Below, one piece after another: positions 4,784 through 18,485 of a stretch of DNA of 21,272 bases. The DNA lies in the NCBI GenBank assembly GCA_028713935.1, contig JAQTNI010000021.1:1-21272 (forward strand), given 5' to 3'. Numbering within the stretch: position 1 is the first letter of the stretch; every line of letters begins with the position of its first letter. The notes beneath the pieces were generated by a model that was not told where the DNA came from, ran no database searches, and saw only the letters and a list, made by a program, of their open reading frames with translations. Position numbers and translations under genes: made by a program. Source of the stretch: Candidatus Iainarchaeum sp. (GTDB taxonomy: Archaea; Iainarchaeota; Iainarchaeia; Iainarchaeales; GCA-2688035).

Positions 4784-5182
4784 ATGAAAAAAGCAATTAT
4801 AATCCTCTTAATCCTGATGTTTGTTGGTTCTGTTTTTGCAGTGCCAATGGCAAAAACCGAAGCTCAAATTTCTGCAGATGCATCTGTGGCTGAAAAGCAA
4901 AACCTGATTGCGGGCCAAATAGCAATTCAAATCAACAGCAATGAGGTTGCTGCAGATGGAGAAACAGGCGCTGCTATTGAGAGATGCCCTTGCATAAAAG
5001 GAGACCTTAATGGAGACGGGTTAATTAATTTTGAGGACATAAATCCTTTCACAAGGGTAATCAGGCATCCCTGGTTCTACAAAATTTTTAATCCACGCAT
5101 GTTTTGCGCAGCAGACATCAACAACGATAACGAAGTAGACTTCAAGGACATAAATCCTTTCGTTGCACTGCTTTCACAATAA
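4784..5182 (+). CDS. secreted protein consisting of a signal peptide, a linker and one dockerin-type (two Ca-binding repeats) module
   Basis: Signal peptide MKKAIIILLILMFVGSVFA. The two repeats are GDLNGDGLINFEDINPF and ADINNDNEVDFKDINPF. SD GGGGGTG lies 7 nt upstream. Confidence 0.8.
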   Translation: MKKAIIILLILMFVGSVFAVPMAKTEAQISADASVAEKQNLIAGQIAIQINSNEVAADGETGAAIERCPCIKGDLNGDGLINFEDINPFTRVIRHPWFYKIFNPRMFCAADINNDNEVDFKDINPFVALLSQ

Positions 5183-13673: not shown

Positions 13674-13769
13674 AAAAAAACACCAAAATGAACAGTAATA
13701 AATAAAGATAGTGTTTTTTTAAAAAGAAACCTTTTTATTAAAGGTAAACCAATTAGATATCTGGTTAAA

Positions 13770-16043
13770 ATGGACAAAAAAATAATTCTGGCACTTGCCC
13801 TGATTATTTTCTTTTCAATCAATGCCTTTGCACTGGAGTCCTGCCCAAAAGAAATTAATTATTGGTATGAGCTAGAAAAAGAAACTTTTGTTGCAGACAA
13901 GATAACTGCTTTTGGGTACCCTCCCAATGTATTGGCTTACACCAATAATGGCAACTGCTGCGGAATGAATCAGAATGAAGTCAGAAGAATTAAAGCAGTT
14001 TATGGCATAAGAACTGCTTCCAATAGTGAAGAAGCCTGGAACTCAACACTGTTAAAAATCACAATGTTAAAGCACAACAAGGACAAATTATTGCAGGAAA
14101 GAGGTTATACAATTGACAATGACACCTGGGATTTCAAATTTGAATTGATAAAGCCGGATGGAACAGTGTTAAGCACTGTTCAAAAGGAAATCTGGGAAAG
14201 CTCTAACACTGCAATAAATGCAGGGAGAACCTCGCTGGACATTTCAATGCCTGACGGCACACTTGTTTTTCATGTTACATTAGACCTTGATGAAGACAAT
14301 GGCCTTTTAAATGGCGGCCAATTGGACAAAATTTATGTTGAAGCAAAGCAGGACATAATGCAATTAATGAAAACCCTGGCAAATGATAACAGCGCAACGT
14401 GCATTGGCAGCGGCTGCGGTTTTGGTGAAAAGGATTCAGAATTAAACCCTGATGAAACATGCCCAAAAGAATTGAAATATATTTTCAAACAAGGAAAATT
14501 CTTAGGCATAAACAGTGAAAACACTTCCAAATATTCTAGTGAAAACTCTATTCTTTACACTGCCCCGCATTCTAACTGGGTCGGTGAAACAAGCGGTTGT
14601 TTCCTAAGCAAAGGCCAGGCAATGACAGTGAATTCAGTGTATCTTGAAATGTCTCCAAGCAACACGCCAAGAAAAGTAAAGACTTCTTTGCTGAAAATCA
14701 CAATGAAAGACACTCACATTGACAAATTGAGCTCTGGCAGTGACAATGACACCTGGGATTTTGATTTTGAATTATTAAATGGCAGTGGCGCTGCGATAAA
14801 AAAAGATTCTGCTGAAATCTGGGAATATTCAAGTTCAGCAGAAGCAGCTGACAAAACAAAGCTGGATATTGCAATGCCTGATGGCACTCCTGTTTTTCAT
14901 GTAGCACTGAACATGGATTCGGATGCAATCCACGATGGCCAATTGGACAAAATTTATGTTGAAGCAAAGCCAAGTGTGGAAACAGTAATGCAAAAACTTG
15001 CAGGAGCAGAGCCTGGCAGCGGCACTTGCCCAGTTGGCCCGATTGCGGATGCTAAAATAGACGGTATTCCTGTTGGCGGGAGCAAATTCAAAATGTGCAA
15101 ATTCAGCCCTGGGGATTTATTCGGGAATCTTTTCAATGCAGATGGCTCCAAATACAAAGCAACTCCGATTTTTAAGTTAGGCAATAATATAGGAGTTTTT
15201 GTGCCTCCAAACCCACAGCAAATTTGCATGAAAGACCAGGCCCCTTCCACAATATTCTGGTCAACAAGCGACAAGGAAACTACAAAGTGCTATTCGGGGG
15301 ATGAATTAAGCGAAGAGCAAAAAAACATTTTGAAAGAAGCCTTTAATGGCTTTTACAATGTTTTTCCGGGCGGTGTCGTTGAGAAATACTTAAAATCTGT
15401 TTTTGCAGCAAAAAATGCAAAGTCAATTGCTGCAGGCGGCACACACGATAGTGGTTTTAATGGCATGACAATTGAAATGGATGCATTCCTTTATTCTGCC
15501 AAAGAAGGCTGCCTGAATCAAACAGATGCAAAACAAACTGCGATTCATGAATTTACACACTTAATGGATTTCCACAATTGCTTTATTTTCAGTGAAGCTG
15601 ATGAGAAAGGCAACGATGGAAAATGGAAATTTTCAGGCTCAATGGAAAAAGAATGGTCCAAAATCACGCCTTACACGGATTATTTGGGCAAGAATTATAA
15701 CACAGTAAGCACTGAAAAGGACGGTTTTATTCCCTATGAAATTTCCACCTATGTGAGATCTGATGCTTCTGAAGACCTCGCCGAAACCACAGCCTACCTG
15801 CTGATGAACAATGAGGACACAAAATTAATTTCTGAAAAGGCAATAGGAGACAGCAAGCTCAAGCAGAAGATTCTGCTTATCGAAAAAATTTGGTCGGATG
15901 CCACGAACGGAGCAATGAACCATGATTGGTGGTGCGGGAACATTGACAAGCTTGATGTTGATTGTTCAGTGCCTGCGAAAAACATGAATGAGGCAATCCA
16001 GAAGATTAACAATAAGCTATTGAAGAGCCTTGGGGCAAATTAA
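13770..16043 (+). CDS. secreted zinc metalloprotease (HExxH, gluzincin-like) with two tandem N-terminal modules I could not assign to a known family
   Basis: Signal peptide MDKKIILALALIIFFSINAFA and no C-terminal TM. HEFTH lies at nt 15546-15560 and a downstream SEDLAETTAY (E-x-x-A-E type third-ligand motif) at 15771-15785. Two modules of about 207 aa each start with CPKE and end with GQLDKIYVEAK. Confidence 0.8.
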   Translation: MDKKIILALALIIFFSINAFALESCPKEINYWYELEKETFVADKITAFGYPPNVLAYTNNGNCCGMNQNEVRRIKAVYGIRTASNSEEAWNSTLLKITMLKHNKDKLLQERGYTIDNDTWDFKFELIKPDGTVLSTVQKEIWESSNTAINAGRTSLDISMPDGTLVFHVTLDLDEDNGLLNGGQLDKIYVEAKQDIMQLMKTLANDNSATCIGSGCGFGEKDSELNPDETCPKELKYIFKQGKFLGINSENTSKYSSENSILYTAPHSNWVGETSGCFLSKGQAMTVNSVYLEMSPSNTPRKVKTSLLKITMKDTHIDKLSSGSDNDTWDFDFELLNGSGAAIKKDSAEIWEYSSSAEAADKTKLDIAMPDGTPVFHVALNMDSDAIHDGQLDKIYVEAKPSVETVMQKLAGAEPGSGTCPVGPIADAKIDGIPVGGSKFKMCKFSPGDLFGNLFNADGSKYKATPIFKLGNNIGVFVPPNPQQICMKDQAPSTIFWSTSDKETTKCYSGDELSEEQKNILKEAFNGFYNVFPGGVVEKYLKSVFAAKNAKSIAAGGTHDSGFNGMTIEMDAFLYSAKEGCLNQTDAKQTAIHEFTHLMDFHNCFIFSEADEKGNDGKWKFSGSMEKEWSKITPYTDYLGKNYNTVSTEKDGFIPYEISTYVRSDASEDLAETTAYLLMNNEDTKLISEKAIGDSKLKQKILLIEKIWSDATNGAMNHDWWCGNIDKLDVDCSVPAKNMNEAIQKINNKLLKSLGAN
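13842..14970 (+). repeat. intragenic tandem duplication (period about 620 nt) inside the metalloprotease gene
   Basis: A 34-nt perfect repeat, ggccaattggacaaaatttatgttgaagcaaagc, occurs at 14316-14349 and 14937-14970 (offset 621 nt, 207 codons). Further near-identical stretches encode NDTWDF and MPDGT.VFHV. Confidence 0.85.
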
Positions 16044-16047
16044 AAAG

Positions 16048-16227
16048 TTATTTTCTTTTTTTTATTGGTGCGCTTTCATAGCAACAGTTTCTGCAGCAAC
16101 TGCTTTCCAGTTCTTTAAAATGGCCTTGTGAAACTGCAACCTTTGCTGAACCCCATTTTGCAAGAGGGGAAAGAGGCTCTTTTTCCTGTTTTTCCGCAAG
16201 TTTATTCATAAGAGCAATTTTTTGCAT
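16048..16227 (-). CDS. small Cys-rich ORF (59 aa), possibly coupled to the surface-protein operon
   Basis: MQKIALMNKLAEKQEKEPLSPLAKWGSAKVAVSQGHFKELESSCCRNCCYESAPIKKRK. Its ATG overlaps the TAA of the 752-aa gene (TAATG at 16225-16229). It falls below the ORF-track cutoff and has no homology that I recognise. Confidence 0.35.
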   Translation of the reverse strand: MQKIALMNKLAEKQEKEPLSPLAKWGSAKVAVSQGHFKELESSCCRNCCYESAPIKKRK

Positions 16228-18485
16228 TATTTTCTTTTTTTTGCTTTTTTCTTTGGCCTTGATTTTATTTTTTTTGTTATTTCTTCAAGGCTTTTTGCTT
16301 TTGCGCCTGTGCTTTCCTCTTCAGGGGCTTTCCAATAAGATTCAATTTTTTCCTCTTTGTCTTCTTCTTTGGAAAAGGTTCCCCTGCTTTTTAGGATGAT
16401 TACTATTGCAAGGACAATCACTATTGCAATCAATACGACCATGGCGAGGTCTTTTACGCTTGCCGTTGGAATCCATCCGAAAATCGGCACCTGCTGTTTT
16501 TTCTGGGCATTAAGGTCAATCTGTATGTCCCTTACTATTTCGCCTTTGTCAGTAAAGATTCTTATTGGCACAGTGAATTGTGTTTCATTGAAATCCTTGC
16601 CAAGGAAAAGAGTCATTTTTGCCTGCAATTCTTCTTCGGGTGCAAGGCTTTTTTCTGAAAAGTCAAATTTTGCATTATAACCAAATGCATTCAGGTCTGT
16701 TATTTTTACAATGGAATTTGAATCGTTTTTTATTGAAATGCCAATCTCAACTGTTTTTTCCACTGCCTGTGTAACATTTCCCAGCTCTCCGGAAGCCGAA
16801 ACGTCTGCCTTGCCGATTGCGCCATAAAGCCCGCCGTAAACATTTGCAATTATTTCTTTTGATTCTGAAAAGTGCTGTGCTGAAATTGAGAGTTTTGCAT
16901 TGTAAGGGGAATTTTTTGTGTCATAAGGCGGGTCAAAGTAAAGGTAAATTTCTTTTTCCTGGCCTGCTTCCAAGCCAAAGGAGCCTGGCTGGAAATAAAC
17001 CCAGTTTTCTCCTGCAACATCTGCATTCACAGTGGTTTTTTTTGTCCCAGTGTTTTTTATTTTTACTGTGAAAGGATTTGCCTTGTTGCCTTTTGAATCA
17101 GAGGCATTGACATCAATTGAATTGTTCAGGCCGTCATAATCCACAAGCAGTGCATAGCAGGCAATTGCCCTGAAGGAAAATTTTTCTTTTGTTGAAAAAT
17201 AATTTGAGCTGATTGCCAGTTCAAAGTTTTTGTCCCCCGCGGTTTCGTTTGCAAGGCTGATTGTTGCCTTAAAAACCTGTTTTTGACCTGGCTGGATTGT
17301 TGCAGTGGCAGGTGTTGCCTGTGCAGTTATTCCCGTAAGGGAAAGGCTAACGTCAATTGGCTCTGCCTTGCTGTTAAATAATTCAAATTCGTAAACAAGC
17401 TGCTCTTCAATGCAGGCTTCTGGCACTGCTGTTTCCTGGCCATTTGCCTTTACGCTTGAAATTGCAACTCCATAACAATCCTGCAATTGCACTGAAAATT
17501 CTTGCTCAGTATCTTTGCCAAAGAGTTTTGAATGGGCAACAATTACAAATGGGTATTCTTTTGCTGTTGAATCTGTTTTTTTGAAGGAAACGTCAATTGT
17601 TTTTTCTTCCCCTGAATTCAGGTCAAGCGCGGCCTGGCTGATTGAGGCCCATGGCAGGCCTGAAACGCTTAATTCAAGAGAATCCGCTAACCTGCCGGAA
17701 TTTTTTATTTTTATTTGTGCAGTTGTTTCCTTGTCCTTGCAGGATTTAAGCGGGTTTGCTGAAATAATTGTTTGCTGTGCATCGGCAATTTTCAATGCAA
17801 GGCTTTTCTGGGCAACAAAATTTATGCTCTGGATTGTTGCCTGCACACTAAAAGGGTATTCTTTTGCCTGTGCAGAGCAGGCAGGCTTTAATTTCACAAG
17901 AACCTGTTTTGAATGGTTTTTTTCAAGCAAAAAAGCGTCTTTTGAATAGTCAAGCCATTGGTCTGGCAGGCCTTTTATGAAAAAGGAAACAAGCTCGTCG
18001 CTTCTCCCAGTGTTTGCAATTGTTGCAGTAAAATTTTTTTGTTCACACTGCCTCAATTCAAAGGAAGCTGCATTGACATCAATTGAAACAGACCTGCTTG
18101 GCCTTACTGTAACGGAAATTATTTGTGAAAAGCTTTCCGATGCGCCTGCAAATTGCAGTGTTATTTCGTAATTTCCAGGCTGTGTATAACAGCTCTGTGG
18201 TTTTATGAAAGCATAAAGATTTTTTGCTTCGCCTGAAGCGAGTGTGATTTCAAGGGCTTCTTTTCCAACCCATTTTCCATTCAGGTTTATCCAGTCCTTG
18301 TTTTCTCCGACAGAACTAATCCTGAATGTTTGGCCCTGTGCAGAATCATTGTTCAGGGAAAAAACAGCCTGGGCAGGAGAAAGGCAGTCAACTGAAACAG
18401 AAAAATTTCCCGTCACTGCGGATGCATTTGCAGCCGCAAGCAAAAACAAAAAGATTATTGCTGAAAAAATTATTTTTGAATTCAT
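16227..18485 (-). CDS. type-I anchored surface protein with about 6 CARDB/NEW3-like beta-sandwich repeats
   Basis: Signal peptide MNSKIIFSAIIFLFLLAAANASA and C-terminal TM LAMVVLIAIVIVLAIVIIL followed by a Lys-rich tail. Recurrent module: C..(F/T)..I.N.G... GLP... G(E/Q)EK... (E/N)Y.F.V. Many N-x-S/T sequons. Confidence 0.8.
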   Translation of the reverse strand: MNSKIIFSAIIFLFLLAAANASAVTGNFSVSVDCLSPAQAVFSLNNDSAQGQTFRISSVGENKDWINLNGKWVGKEALEITLASGEAKNLYAFIKPQSCYTQPGNYEITLQFAGASESFSQIISVTVRPSRSVSIDVNAASFELRQCEQKNFTATIANTGRSDELVSFFIKGLPDQWLDYSKDAFLLEKNHSKQVLVKLKPACSAQAKEYPFSVQATIQSINFVAQKSLALKIADAQQTIISANPLKSCKDKETTAQIKIKNSGRLADSLELSVSGLPWASISQAALDLNSGEEKTIDVSFKKTDSTAKEYPFVIVAHSKLFGKDTEQEFSVQLQDCYGVAISSVKANGQETAVPEACIEEQLVYEFELFNSKAEPIDVSLSLTGITAQATPATATIQPGQKQVFKATISLANETAGDKNFELAISSNYFSTKEKFSFRAIACYALLVDYDGLNNSIDVNASDSKGNKANPFTVKIKNTGTKKTTVNADVAGENWVYFQPGSFGLEAGQEKEIYLYFDPPYDTKNSPYNAKLSISAQHFSESKEIIANVYGGLYGAIGKADVSASGELGNVTQAVEKTVEIGISIKNDSNSIVKITDLNAFGYNAKFDFSEKSLAPEEELQAKMTLFLGKDFNETQFTVPIRIFTDKGEIVRDIQIDLNAQKKQQVPIFGWIPTASVKDLAMVVLIAIVIVLAIVIILKSRGTFSKEEDKEEKIESYWKAPEEESTGAKAKSLEEITKKIKSRPKKKAKKRK

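Follow-up and report, generated by a model that had tools for sequence, protein, structure and literature searches.

What does a secreted protein that joins a zincin-like HExxH motif to two tandem modules of unrecognised type do in a DPANN archaeon, and what ties its gene to the neighbouring surface-protein operon? The question is raised by a gene at 13770..16043 (+) of the stretch of DNA analysed here, 21,272 nt from Candidatus Iainarchaeum sp., referred to below, at its whole length, as the window. The gene consists of one open frame encoding 757 aa, and every element listed for it in the first-pass annotation was found in its place. The source genome is a 1.23 Mb assembly in 72 contigs, 93.7% complete.

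The explanation that accounts best for the data, and that we consider probable, though with moderate confidence only, is that of a secreted, disulfide-rich surface metallopeptidase built of four units and held by a tethering tail. The first unit, a cleavable signal peptide, would direct Sec secretion. The second would comprise two ancient tandem orphan modules, mostly of beta structure and ~185 aa each, with a binding or targeting role. In the third, a gluzincin-type zinc metallopeptidase, HEFTH would provide the catalytic Glu together with a pair of His ligands, and a Glu of the EDLAE helix, ~71-75 residues further on, would act as the third zinc ligand. The fourth, an amphipathic C-terminal helix of ~22 aa, would keep the protein at the cell surface, either docked on adjacent envelope proteins or lying within the membrane, and the domains upstream of it would be exchanged between lineages. 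In terms of classification, the protein fits best as a gluzincin-like metallopeptidase that is secreted, carries a duplicated orphan domain and ends in a tail specific to its lineage; it falls outside M34, M90 and TIGR04549.

Secretion and Mosaic Architecture

The N-terminus of the protein reads as a type I signal peptide. The cleavage junction AFA/L-x-x-C recurs in five homologues (P0002, P0003, P0006, P0007 and P0008), and the initial description of a secreted multidomain protein thus agrees with both the signal peptide and its conserved junction. The 757 residues include 15 Cys, which is consistent with an extracellular protein.

When 1.84 billion cluster representatives were searched exhaustively with phmmer, only eight proteins were obtained at E <=1e-3, with mosaic architectures (SP, signal peptide; M, module; Zn, zincin domain; P0001 and G000 denote the protein and the genome of the window). 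P0001 is composed of SP, M, M, Zn and tail, and P0002 of SP, M, Zn and tail. In P0003, the order is SP, M, M, an unrelated part of ~150 aa, and tail. P0004, encoded in genome G004, carries SP, a different duplicated repeat, Zn and tail. P0005, from G001 of the same genus, consists of SP, M, M and tail, and P0006 of SP, M and tail, while P0007 and P0008 contain SP, M, a coiled coil and another C-terminus.

A separate observation concerns this last C-terminus. A secreted protein of G006, whose gene (L020:2072-3313 (-)) lies ~2 kb from the surface operon, has a C-terminus with 45% identity (E 3e-19) to residues 297-403 of P0007 (~105 aa). Inside this part of P0007 is a stretch, SNPI.AIN..L, similar to the tail motif.

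The Genomic Slot and the Conserved C-Terminal Tail

The gene occupies a position that was recognised in nine loci: a gene for a secreted protein, flanked by a trxB-like gene on one side and by the surface operon on the other, and convergent with the gene of a 752-aa surface protein or its orthologue. These loci are the window, G001, G002, G004, G005, G010, G012, G013, where a contig break leaves the trxB flank alone visible, and the Logan contig carrying P0003. The contents of the slot vary markedly. The window has two modules followed by the zincin domain, and G001 has two modules. Three copies of another repeat, ~155 aa long, with a PKD domain are present in G002, and two copies of this G002-type repeat with a zincin domain in G004. 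The occupant in G010 is a PKD protein of 164 aa, and those of G005, G012 and G013 are orphan proteins. The second orphan repeat, with the motifs W..Y, L.PG.F, CW and FCYQIYD, takes the place of module M in the slot; the genes that carry it lie at L019:2340-4199 (+) in G002 and at L002:1399-3534 (-) in G004.

Despite the differing domains, all slot proteins end in the same C-terminal peptide of ~22 aa. Its consensus is approximately C..P..N.LEAI...NKK.L..LG.., with distant forms of the type C..L.CLA.ID..F..S. The tail profile matched 12 of the 22 genomes of the family (f1) at E <=0.1; at E <=1e-4, seven of the 22 were matched, versus one of the 173 other genomes of the order. The tail of G005, a genome not used in profile building, was recovered at E 4.8e-6 in the same slot. 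Genomes of relatives contain the tail in one or two copies, which invariably lie in the slot beside the surface operon, and when the whole genome of the window (1.23 Mb) was searched with two tail hidden Markov models (HMMs), no ORF (open reading frame) matched besides this one.

The tails are amphipathic. Their hydrophobic moments ranged from 0.45 to 0.61, values reached by at most 4% of shuffled sequences in 11 of the 12 tails; for the window tail, the moment was 0.51, reached by 0.8% of shuffles. Mean hydrophobicity was between -0.1 and 0.27, no hydrophobic span was present, and the end reads ..LGAN.

Two known types of signal were considered for the tail and rejected. Archaeosortase-type sorting signals (PGF-CTERM and kin) combine a short signature motif with a transmembrane helix that follows it and a basic cluster as the last element of the protein; the tails are amphipathic and have no transmembrane span, and they are therefore not signals of this type. 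A general sorting signal was rejected because neither tail HMM matched any other ORF of the genome.

From these properties we infer that the role of the tail is to hold secreted proteins of varying content at the surface of the cell. As to the mode, docking on the adjacent conserved envelope proteins is preferred, given the slot specificity of the tail. A rival placement, which would leave the rest of the explanation unchanged, is that of an in-plane anchor in the outer leaflet of the membrane, by analogy with the membrane-targeting sequences of MinD/FtsA type on the cytoplasmic face. The hydrophobic moments, above those of at least 96% of shuffles in 11 of 12 tails, would suit such an anchor, as would the basic and hydrophobic ends (KKLLKSLG, KRMLKGLG) and the lack of a transmembrane segment in the tail. 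A generic anchor, however, would be expected on several secreted proteins, yet the tail is found on one ORF in its own genome and, in relatives, once or twice, always in the slot by the surface operon. The membrane anchor was rated as rather unlikely.

The Zincin-Like C-Terminal Domain

P0001, P0002 and P0004 have in common a conserved region, residues ~415-734, in which they are 41-59% identical. Invariant in all three are H593, E594, H597, D600, H602, N603, E668, D669, A671, E672 and seven Cys. The first annotation had pointed to HEFTH followed about 70 residues later by SEDLAETTAY, and this arrangement was confirmed, with E668 and E672 lying 71 and 75 residues after H597. A Cys-rich region precedes the core and always accompanies it in these three proteins.

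Three independent curated libraries agreed on one group of proteins, the HExxH lipoprotein metallohydrolases. In hmmscan searches with PF15890 (Peptidase_Mx1, gathering threshold 25.6 bits), the full protein scored 22.5 bits and the domain alone 24.6 bits (E 1.9e-5), while P0004 and P0002 reached 24.7 bits (E 1.7e-5) and 18.9 bits (E 1.1e-3), respectively. A six-frame search with the same model gave 23.6 bits for the window (26.2 with neighbours in frame) and 28.4 bits for the G004 orthologue. TIGR04549 and NF047804 (the LIC13305 family) matched all three homologues in the same profile region, at E 1e-6 to 7e-5 and E 1e-7 to 8e-4, respectively. Both HExxH and ED..E fall within the stretch matched by hmmscan (residues 557-705, profile positions 97-228), at conserved positions of Peptidase_Mx1. 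In addition, the three-homologue profile aligned GFIP.EISTYVRS.A.EDLAE to GFVTSYAMSESREDFVE of PDB 9urd_A, a 'substrate import-associated zinc metallohydrolase lipoprotein', so that EDLAE pairs with EDFVE; this match was weak (E 0.36).

We take the domain to be a probable distant relative of the Mx1-type gluzincins, archaeal and not a lipoprotein, and probably active. In common with Peptidase_Mx1, TIGR04549, 9urd and LIC13305, it has HExxH, a GF[IV]..Y......ED..E helix ~70 residues on, and an extracytoplasmic location. Unlike lipoproteins of TIGR04549 type, the protein is archaeal, carries a type I signal peptide instead of a lipobox and has no TonB/SusC neighbour; beyond these relatives, it has the extra Cys-rich N-terminal region, the two orphan modules and the C-terminal tail. 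The motif logic is that of MtfA (M90) and of minimal gluzincins resembling lethal factor, namely HExxHxxD with a downstream acidic helix of ExxAE type, which in MtfA gives the third ligand.

The gluzincin-like pair of motifs proposed in the first-pass annotation was thus borne out, being invariant in three homologues and falling within the region where the Peptidase_Mx1, TIGR04549 and LIC13305 profiles match, but the particular likeness it saw to M34/Zmp1 and MtfA was not. Matches to MEROPS M90 (MtfA)/PF06167 reached only 11.3-12.7 bits versus 26.2 (E 0.1-0.25) and covered 27 residues around HExxH only. For M34/Zmp1-like peptidases, there was no Pfam model at E <=10 and no PDB sequence match. 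Membership in TIGR04549 itself was also rejected, with 22-28 bits versus 75 required, no lipobox, and a trxB-like gene and an Ig-rich surface operon as neighbours.

The zincin profile recovered P0002 only from 5.8 billion proteins, and from the 214 genomes of the class G000, G004 and one spurious match. The latter falls in a phage-like locus (L008, G128:C6:506-3763) on a contig of a DPANN metagenome-assembled genome (MAG), with one large-terminase-like and one portal-like ORF of phage-type head assembly.

Two further DPANN proteins of ~465 aa, from G050 (L028:937-2334 (-)) and G192 (L029:1033-2421 (-)), were also noted as matching Peptidase_Mx1, the former with 27.6 bits, above the cut-off. 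They contain HHEIKH/RHEMKH and GF[IV]..YA.....EDIAE at similar spacing, and have basic N-termini and a hydrophobic segment. They look like a different archaeal Mx1-like family.

Several points weigh against the overall account. The family scores lie at or below the curated cut-offs (PF15890 25.6, TIGR04549 75 and NF047804 250 bits). The AlphaFold2 model of the C-terminal region, built on a three-row alignment, was poor, with a predicted local distance difference test (pLDDT) value of 41.6; it places both motifs in helices, and its Foldseek matches were noise. Alignment of the zincin domain with the G050 and G192 proteins by hhalign, using shallow profiles, indicated no relation (probability 2.6). 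The third ligand could be His602 instead of Glu. For the tail, the null explanation is that it may persist only because the 3' end of the gene stays fixed and is inherited as such while domains are shuffled.

The scores beneath the cut-offs would also suit a different function, in which the HExxH domain either lacks catalysis and serves as a pseudo-peptidase scaffold or hydrolyses substrates other than peptides, and the protein is mainly a structural or adhesive component of the surface. The slot proteins of G001, G002, G010 and G012 lack a zincin domain; since it is so often missing, the conserved role of the slot needs no proteolysis. Against this stands the invariance of H, E, H and the ED..E helix at 41-59% identity, a pattern expected under selection for catalysis, and this different function appears improbable.

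The alternative ligand was given the same low standing. Here HEFTHLMDFH would be read as HExxHxxxxH, with His602 completing a three-His site and the EDLAE helix left with a structural or substrate role. H602, D600 and N603 are indeed invariant in the three homologues. The spacing is +5, however, whereas metzincins are defined by HExxHxxGxxH, with a spacing of +6 and a Gly turn, and the best match to the Mx1, TIGR04549 and 9urd profiles is the ED..E helix. A Glu of EDLAE is retained as the candidate third ligand of the putative peptidase.

The Duplicated N-Terminal Module

The two tandem modules begin at C25 and C231. They are 38% identical over 196 columns (BLASTP E 5e-39), and both carry all of the motifs by which they had first been recognised. 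The module family comprises ten copies in seven proteins. C3, C49, L79, L80, W101, F103, G112 and F148 are invariant in the ten-copy alignment, and D99, E121 and E124, sited in the motifs DNDxWDF and EIWEYS, are nearly so.

The second copy was modelled with AlphaFold2 from the ten-row alignment, with a mean pLDDT of 89.1 and a predicted template modelling score (pTM) of 0.87. The model has 12 strands, several of them of 10-17 residues, one short helix and a C-terminal helix. Comparison with known families was negative at the levels of both sequence and fold. Among Pfam matches to all ten copies, none was below E 0.016 and no family was common to two copies. A sequence-profile search of PDB gave no matches at E <=10. 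Foldseek, with a fold comparison covering PDB and BFVD, returned none at E <=0.001; the best E values were 0.035 (PDB) and 0.018 (BFVD), with template modelling (TM) scores <=0.30. A known carbohydrate-binding or Ig-like family, the outcome that would have spoken against an unrecognised module, did not emerge from these searches of Pfam, PDB and BFVD, and the module belongs to no described family.

The best Foldseek neighbours were DUF1608 of the Methanosarcina S-layer protein MA0829 (PDB 3u2g) and curved sheets of lipocalin/LolA type. DUF1608 resembles the module in its long-stranded antiparallel beta structure and in its archaeal cell-surface context, but at E 0.05, TM 0.30/0.22 and a root-mean-square deviation of 11 A it is no fold match; what the nearest neighbours suggest for the module is a long-stranded antiparallel beta architecture, and only this.

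The lineage was also searched for the module, as first proposed, and among the 214 genomes its profile matched only G000 and G001. Five proteins (P0003 and P0005-P0008) contain the module without a peptidase, which identifies it as an autonomous domain and not a pro-peptide. Its position and the acidic and aromatic character of its conserved surface residues (DNDxWDF, EIWEYS) suggest that it is most likely a binding or targeting domain. That the modules are pro-domains or intramolecular inhibitors, keeping the peptidase latent until their cleavage, is very improbable, for although they lie N-terminal to the catalytic domain and the Cys-containing linkers could be processing sites, these five proteins have no peptidase, the peptidase of P0004 carries a different N-terminal repeat, and a dN/dS of ~0.36 points to independent purifying selection on the modules.

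Evidence for an Old Duplication, and the 34-nt Repeat

An exact 34-nt repeat between the two modules had been taken at first as a sign of recent duplication or ongoing gene conversion. The repeat is present (Table 1), and three weaker in-register repeats, at spacings of 618-639 nt, were also observed. The proposal of a recent duplication was abandoned. In the codon-level alignment of the two modules recommended at that stage, evaluated by the Nei-Gojobori method, the proportions of synonymous (pS) and non-synonymous (pN) differences were 0.66 and 0.40, corresponding to dS ~1.6, dN 0.57 and omega ~0.36. Synonymous sites are near saturation, and purifying selection acts on the modules. In the maximum-likelihood tree, the first modules of P0003 and P0005 formed one clade (98/96) and their second modules another (95/92), so that the duplication is older than the split of those lineages; the two copies of P0001 were not supported as sisters. 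Together with the 38% amino acid identity, this indicates that the duplication is old.

The 34-nt tract was considered separately. Of the positions at which an identical, degenerate amino acid is aligned, 72 in all, 47 had the same codon, compared with 32.7 predicted from genome codon usage (P = 3e-4). The run of 11 identical codons had P = 0.0046 under saturation and P = 0.075 when the gene's own same-codon rate was used. The two copies of the repeat peptide in P0003 show synonymous differences in six of eight shared residues, and the derived K-I-Y state is common to both copies of P0001. A short conversion tract is plausible at the 34-nt repeat alone, with statistics that are only suggestive (P 0.005 to 0.075).

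Features of the Locus

The coordinates of the features are collected in Table 1. The 5' neighbour, on the opposite strand, is the gene of a trxB-like flavoprotein. The 3' neighbour, 16227..18485 (-), encodes the 752-aa Ig-rich, membrane-anchored surface protein and belongs to a conserved three-gene surface operon with products of 187, 620 and 752 aa; the convergence on this operon described earlier was seen here as well. The TATA-like element TTTTTATTAAA would serve as the promoter, judging by archaeal promoter geometry, and the T-rich run TAAAAAGTTATTTTCTTTTTTTTATT after the gene is likely to be an archaeal oligo-T terminator. The window also contains archaeal genes for a tRNA-splicing endonuclease and a KaiC-type ATPase, and the closest named homologue of the protein is a hypothetical protein of a 'Candidatus ainarchaeum sp.' MAG.

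Table 1. Features of the gene and its flanks in the window (residue numbers refer to P0001).
Feature	Position	Strand	Basis or remark
Divergent intergenic region, common with the trxB-like gene	13674..13769	.	Sequence reading
A/T-rich TATA-like element TTTTTATTAAA, candidate promoter	13732-13742		Sequence reading; 28 nt before ATG
Predicted Sec-type signal peptide, residues 1-21 (MDKK, hydrophobic core, NAFA/LE), without lipobox	13770..13832	+	Sequence
Module copy 1, ~185 aa, beta-rich, residues 23-206	13836..14387	+	Module profile E 1.7e-72; aligned with 9 other copies
Perfect 34-nt direct repeat, copy 1, encodes GQLDKIYVEAK	14316..14349	+	Sequence comparison
Cys-containing linker between modules, residues 207-228	14388..14453	+	Alignment boundaries
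Module copy 2 (the modelled copy), residues 229-414	14454..15011	+	Module profile E 2.5e-76
Perfect 34-nt direct repeat, copy 2, candidate micro gene-conversion tract	14937..14970	+	Sequence comparison
Cys-rich region ahead of the core, residues 415-556	15012..15437	+	Invariant Cys in P0001, P0002, P0004; no family match
Zincin-like core	15438..15887	+	HMM; matches Peptidase_Mx1 profile positions 97-229
HEFTH, residues 593-597 (H593, E594, H597), putative zinc-binding/catalytic motif	15546..15560	+	Motif; D600 and H602 beyond it also invariant
EDLAE, residues 668-672 (E668, E672), candidate third-ligand helix	15771..15785	+	Invariant in 3 homologues
Amphipathic tail, ..C-x-x-P-x-x-N-x-N-E-A-I-Q-K-I-N-N-K-L-L-K-S-L-G-A-N	15963..16040	+	Tail profile E 6.8e-11
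Stop codon, then T-rich run TAAAAAGTTATTTTCTTTTTTTTATT, likely terminator	16041..16066	+	Sequence reading

Three further observations were made on the surroundings of the gene. A 59-aa CCxxCC ORF at 16048-16227 (-) is probably not a conserved gene, because it had no counterpart in seven syntenic loci (best tblastn E 0.095) and the gap that holds it, 183 nt in the window, measures 1-104 nt in three syntenic loci. Among the orthologues of the 752-aa surface protein, that of G012 (L015, G012:C5:48291-50483) contains one in-frame TAA and that of G010 (L017/L018, G010:C25:16949-19210) one in-frame TGA; a pseudogene, an assembly error or a split gene is possible in these cases. A 132-aa ORF at 4784-5182 (+) gave a sub-threshold match to dockerin type I, EF-hand-like in character (E 2.4e-4, 21.7 bits versus a cut-off of 22.9), and could bear on surface docking in this archaeon.

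Implications for a Possible Cell-Surface Display

A more specific proposal than tethering as such is put forward tentatively, as a possibility that falls well short of probable. The tail would be a dedicated docking tag by which interchangeable secreted cargo (the zincin, PKD and the two orphan beta modules) is displayed on the conserved three-protein envelope complex of a single Iainarchaeota family, and the slot would be a hot spot of cassette exchange, bounded by the conserved coding ends for the signal peptide and the tail. This would amount to a minimal cohesin-dockerin-like display in DPANN, including a domain of novel fold. As in cohesin-dockerin tethering, a short constant C-terminal element is borne by variable secreted proteins whose genes lie beside a conserved surface-protein operon. 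Dockerins, in contrast, are Ca-binding duplicated EF-hands, and the single amphipathic helix of ~22 aa has no sequence or structural relation to them. Also unlike the cohesin-dockerin case, there are one or two tail-bearing genes per genome, and the interaction is proposed wholly by inference.

For the protein families concerned, the putative peptidase would extend into Archaea a zincin family whose described members are, to date, lipoproteins of Bacteroidota and Leptospira; no relevant literature was found on Peptidase_Mx1, TIGR04549, LIC13305 or proteases of Iainarchaeota. The module adds a confidently modelled domain without a relative in Pfam, PDB or BFVD, confined to a few Iainarchaeota-like sequences.

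For the organisms, the locus suggests a candidate rule of one slot, variable cargo and a constant C-terminal helix, which could explain how secreted enzymes are retained at the envelope. DPANN archaea have tiny genomes and a probable dependence on cell-surface contacts, and most of their surface proteins are unannotated. If the tail is indeed a docking tag, other cargo would be identifiable by the tag alone.

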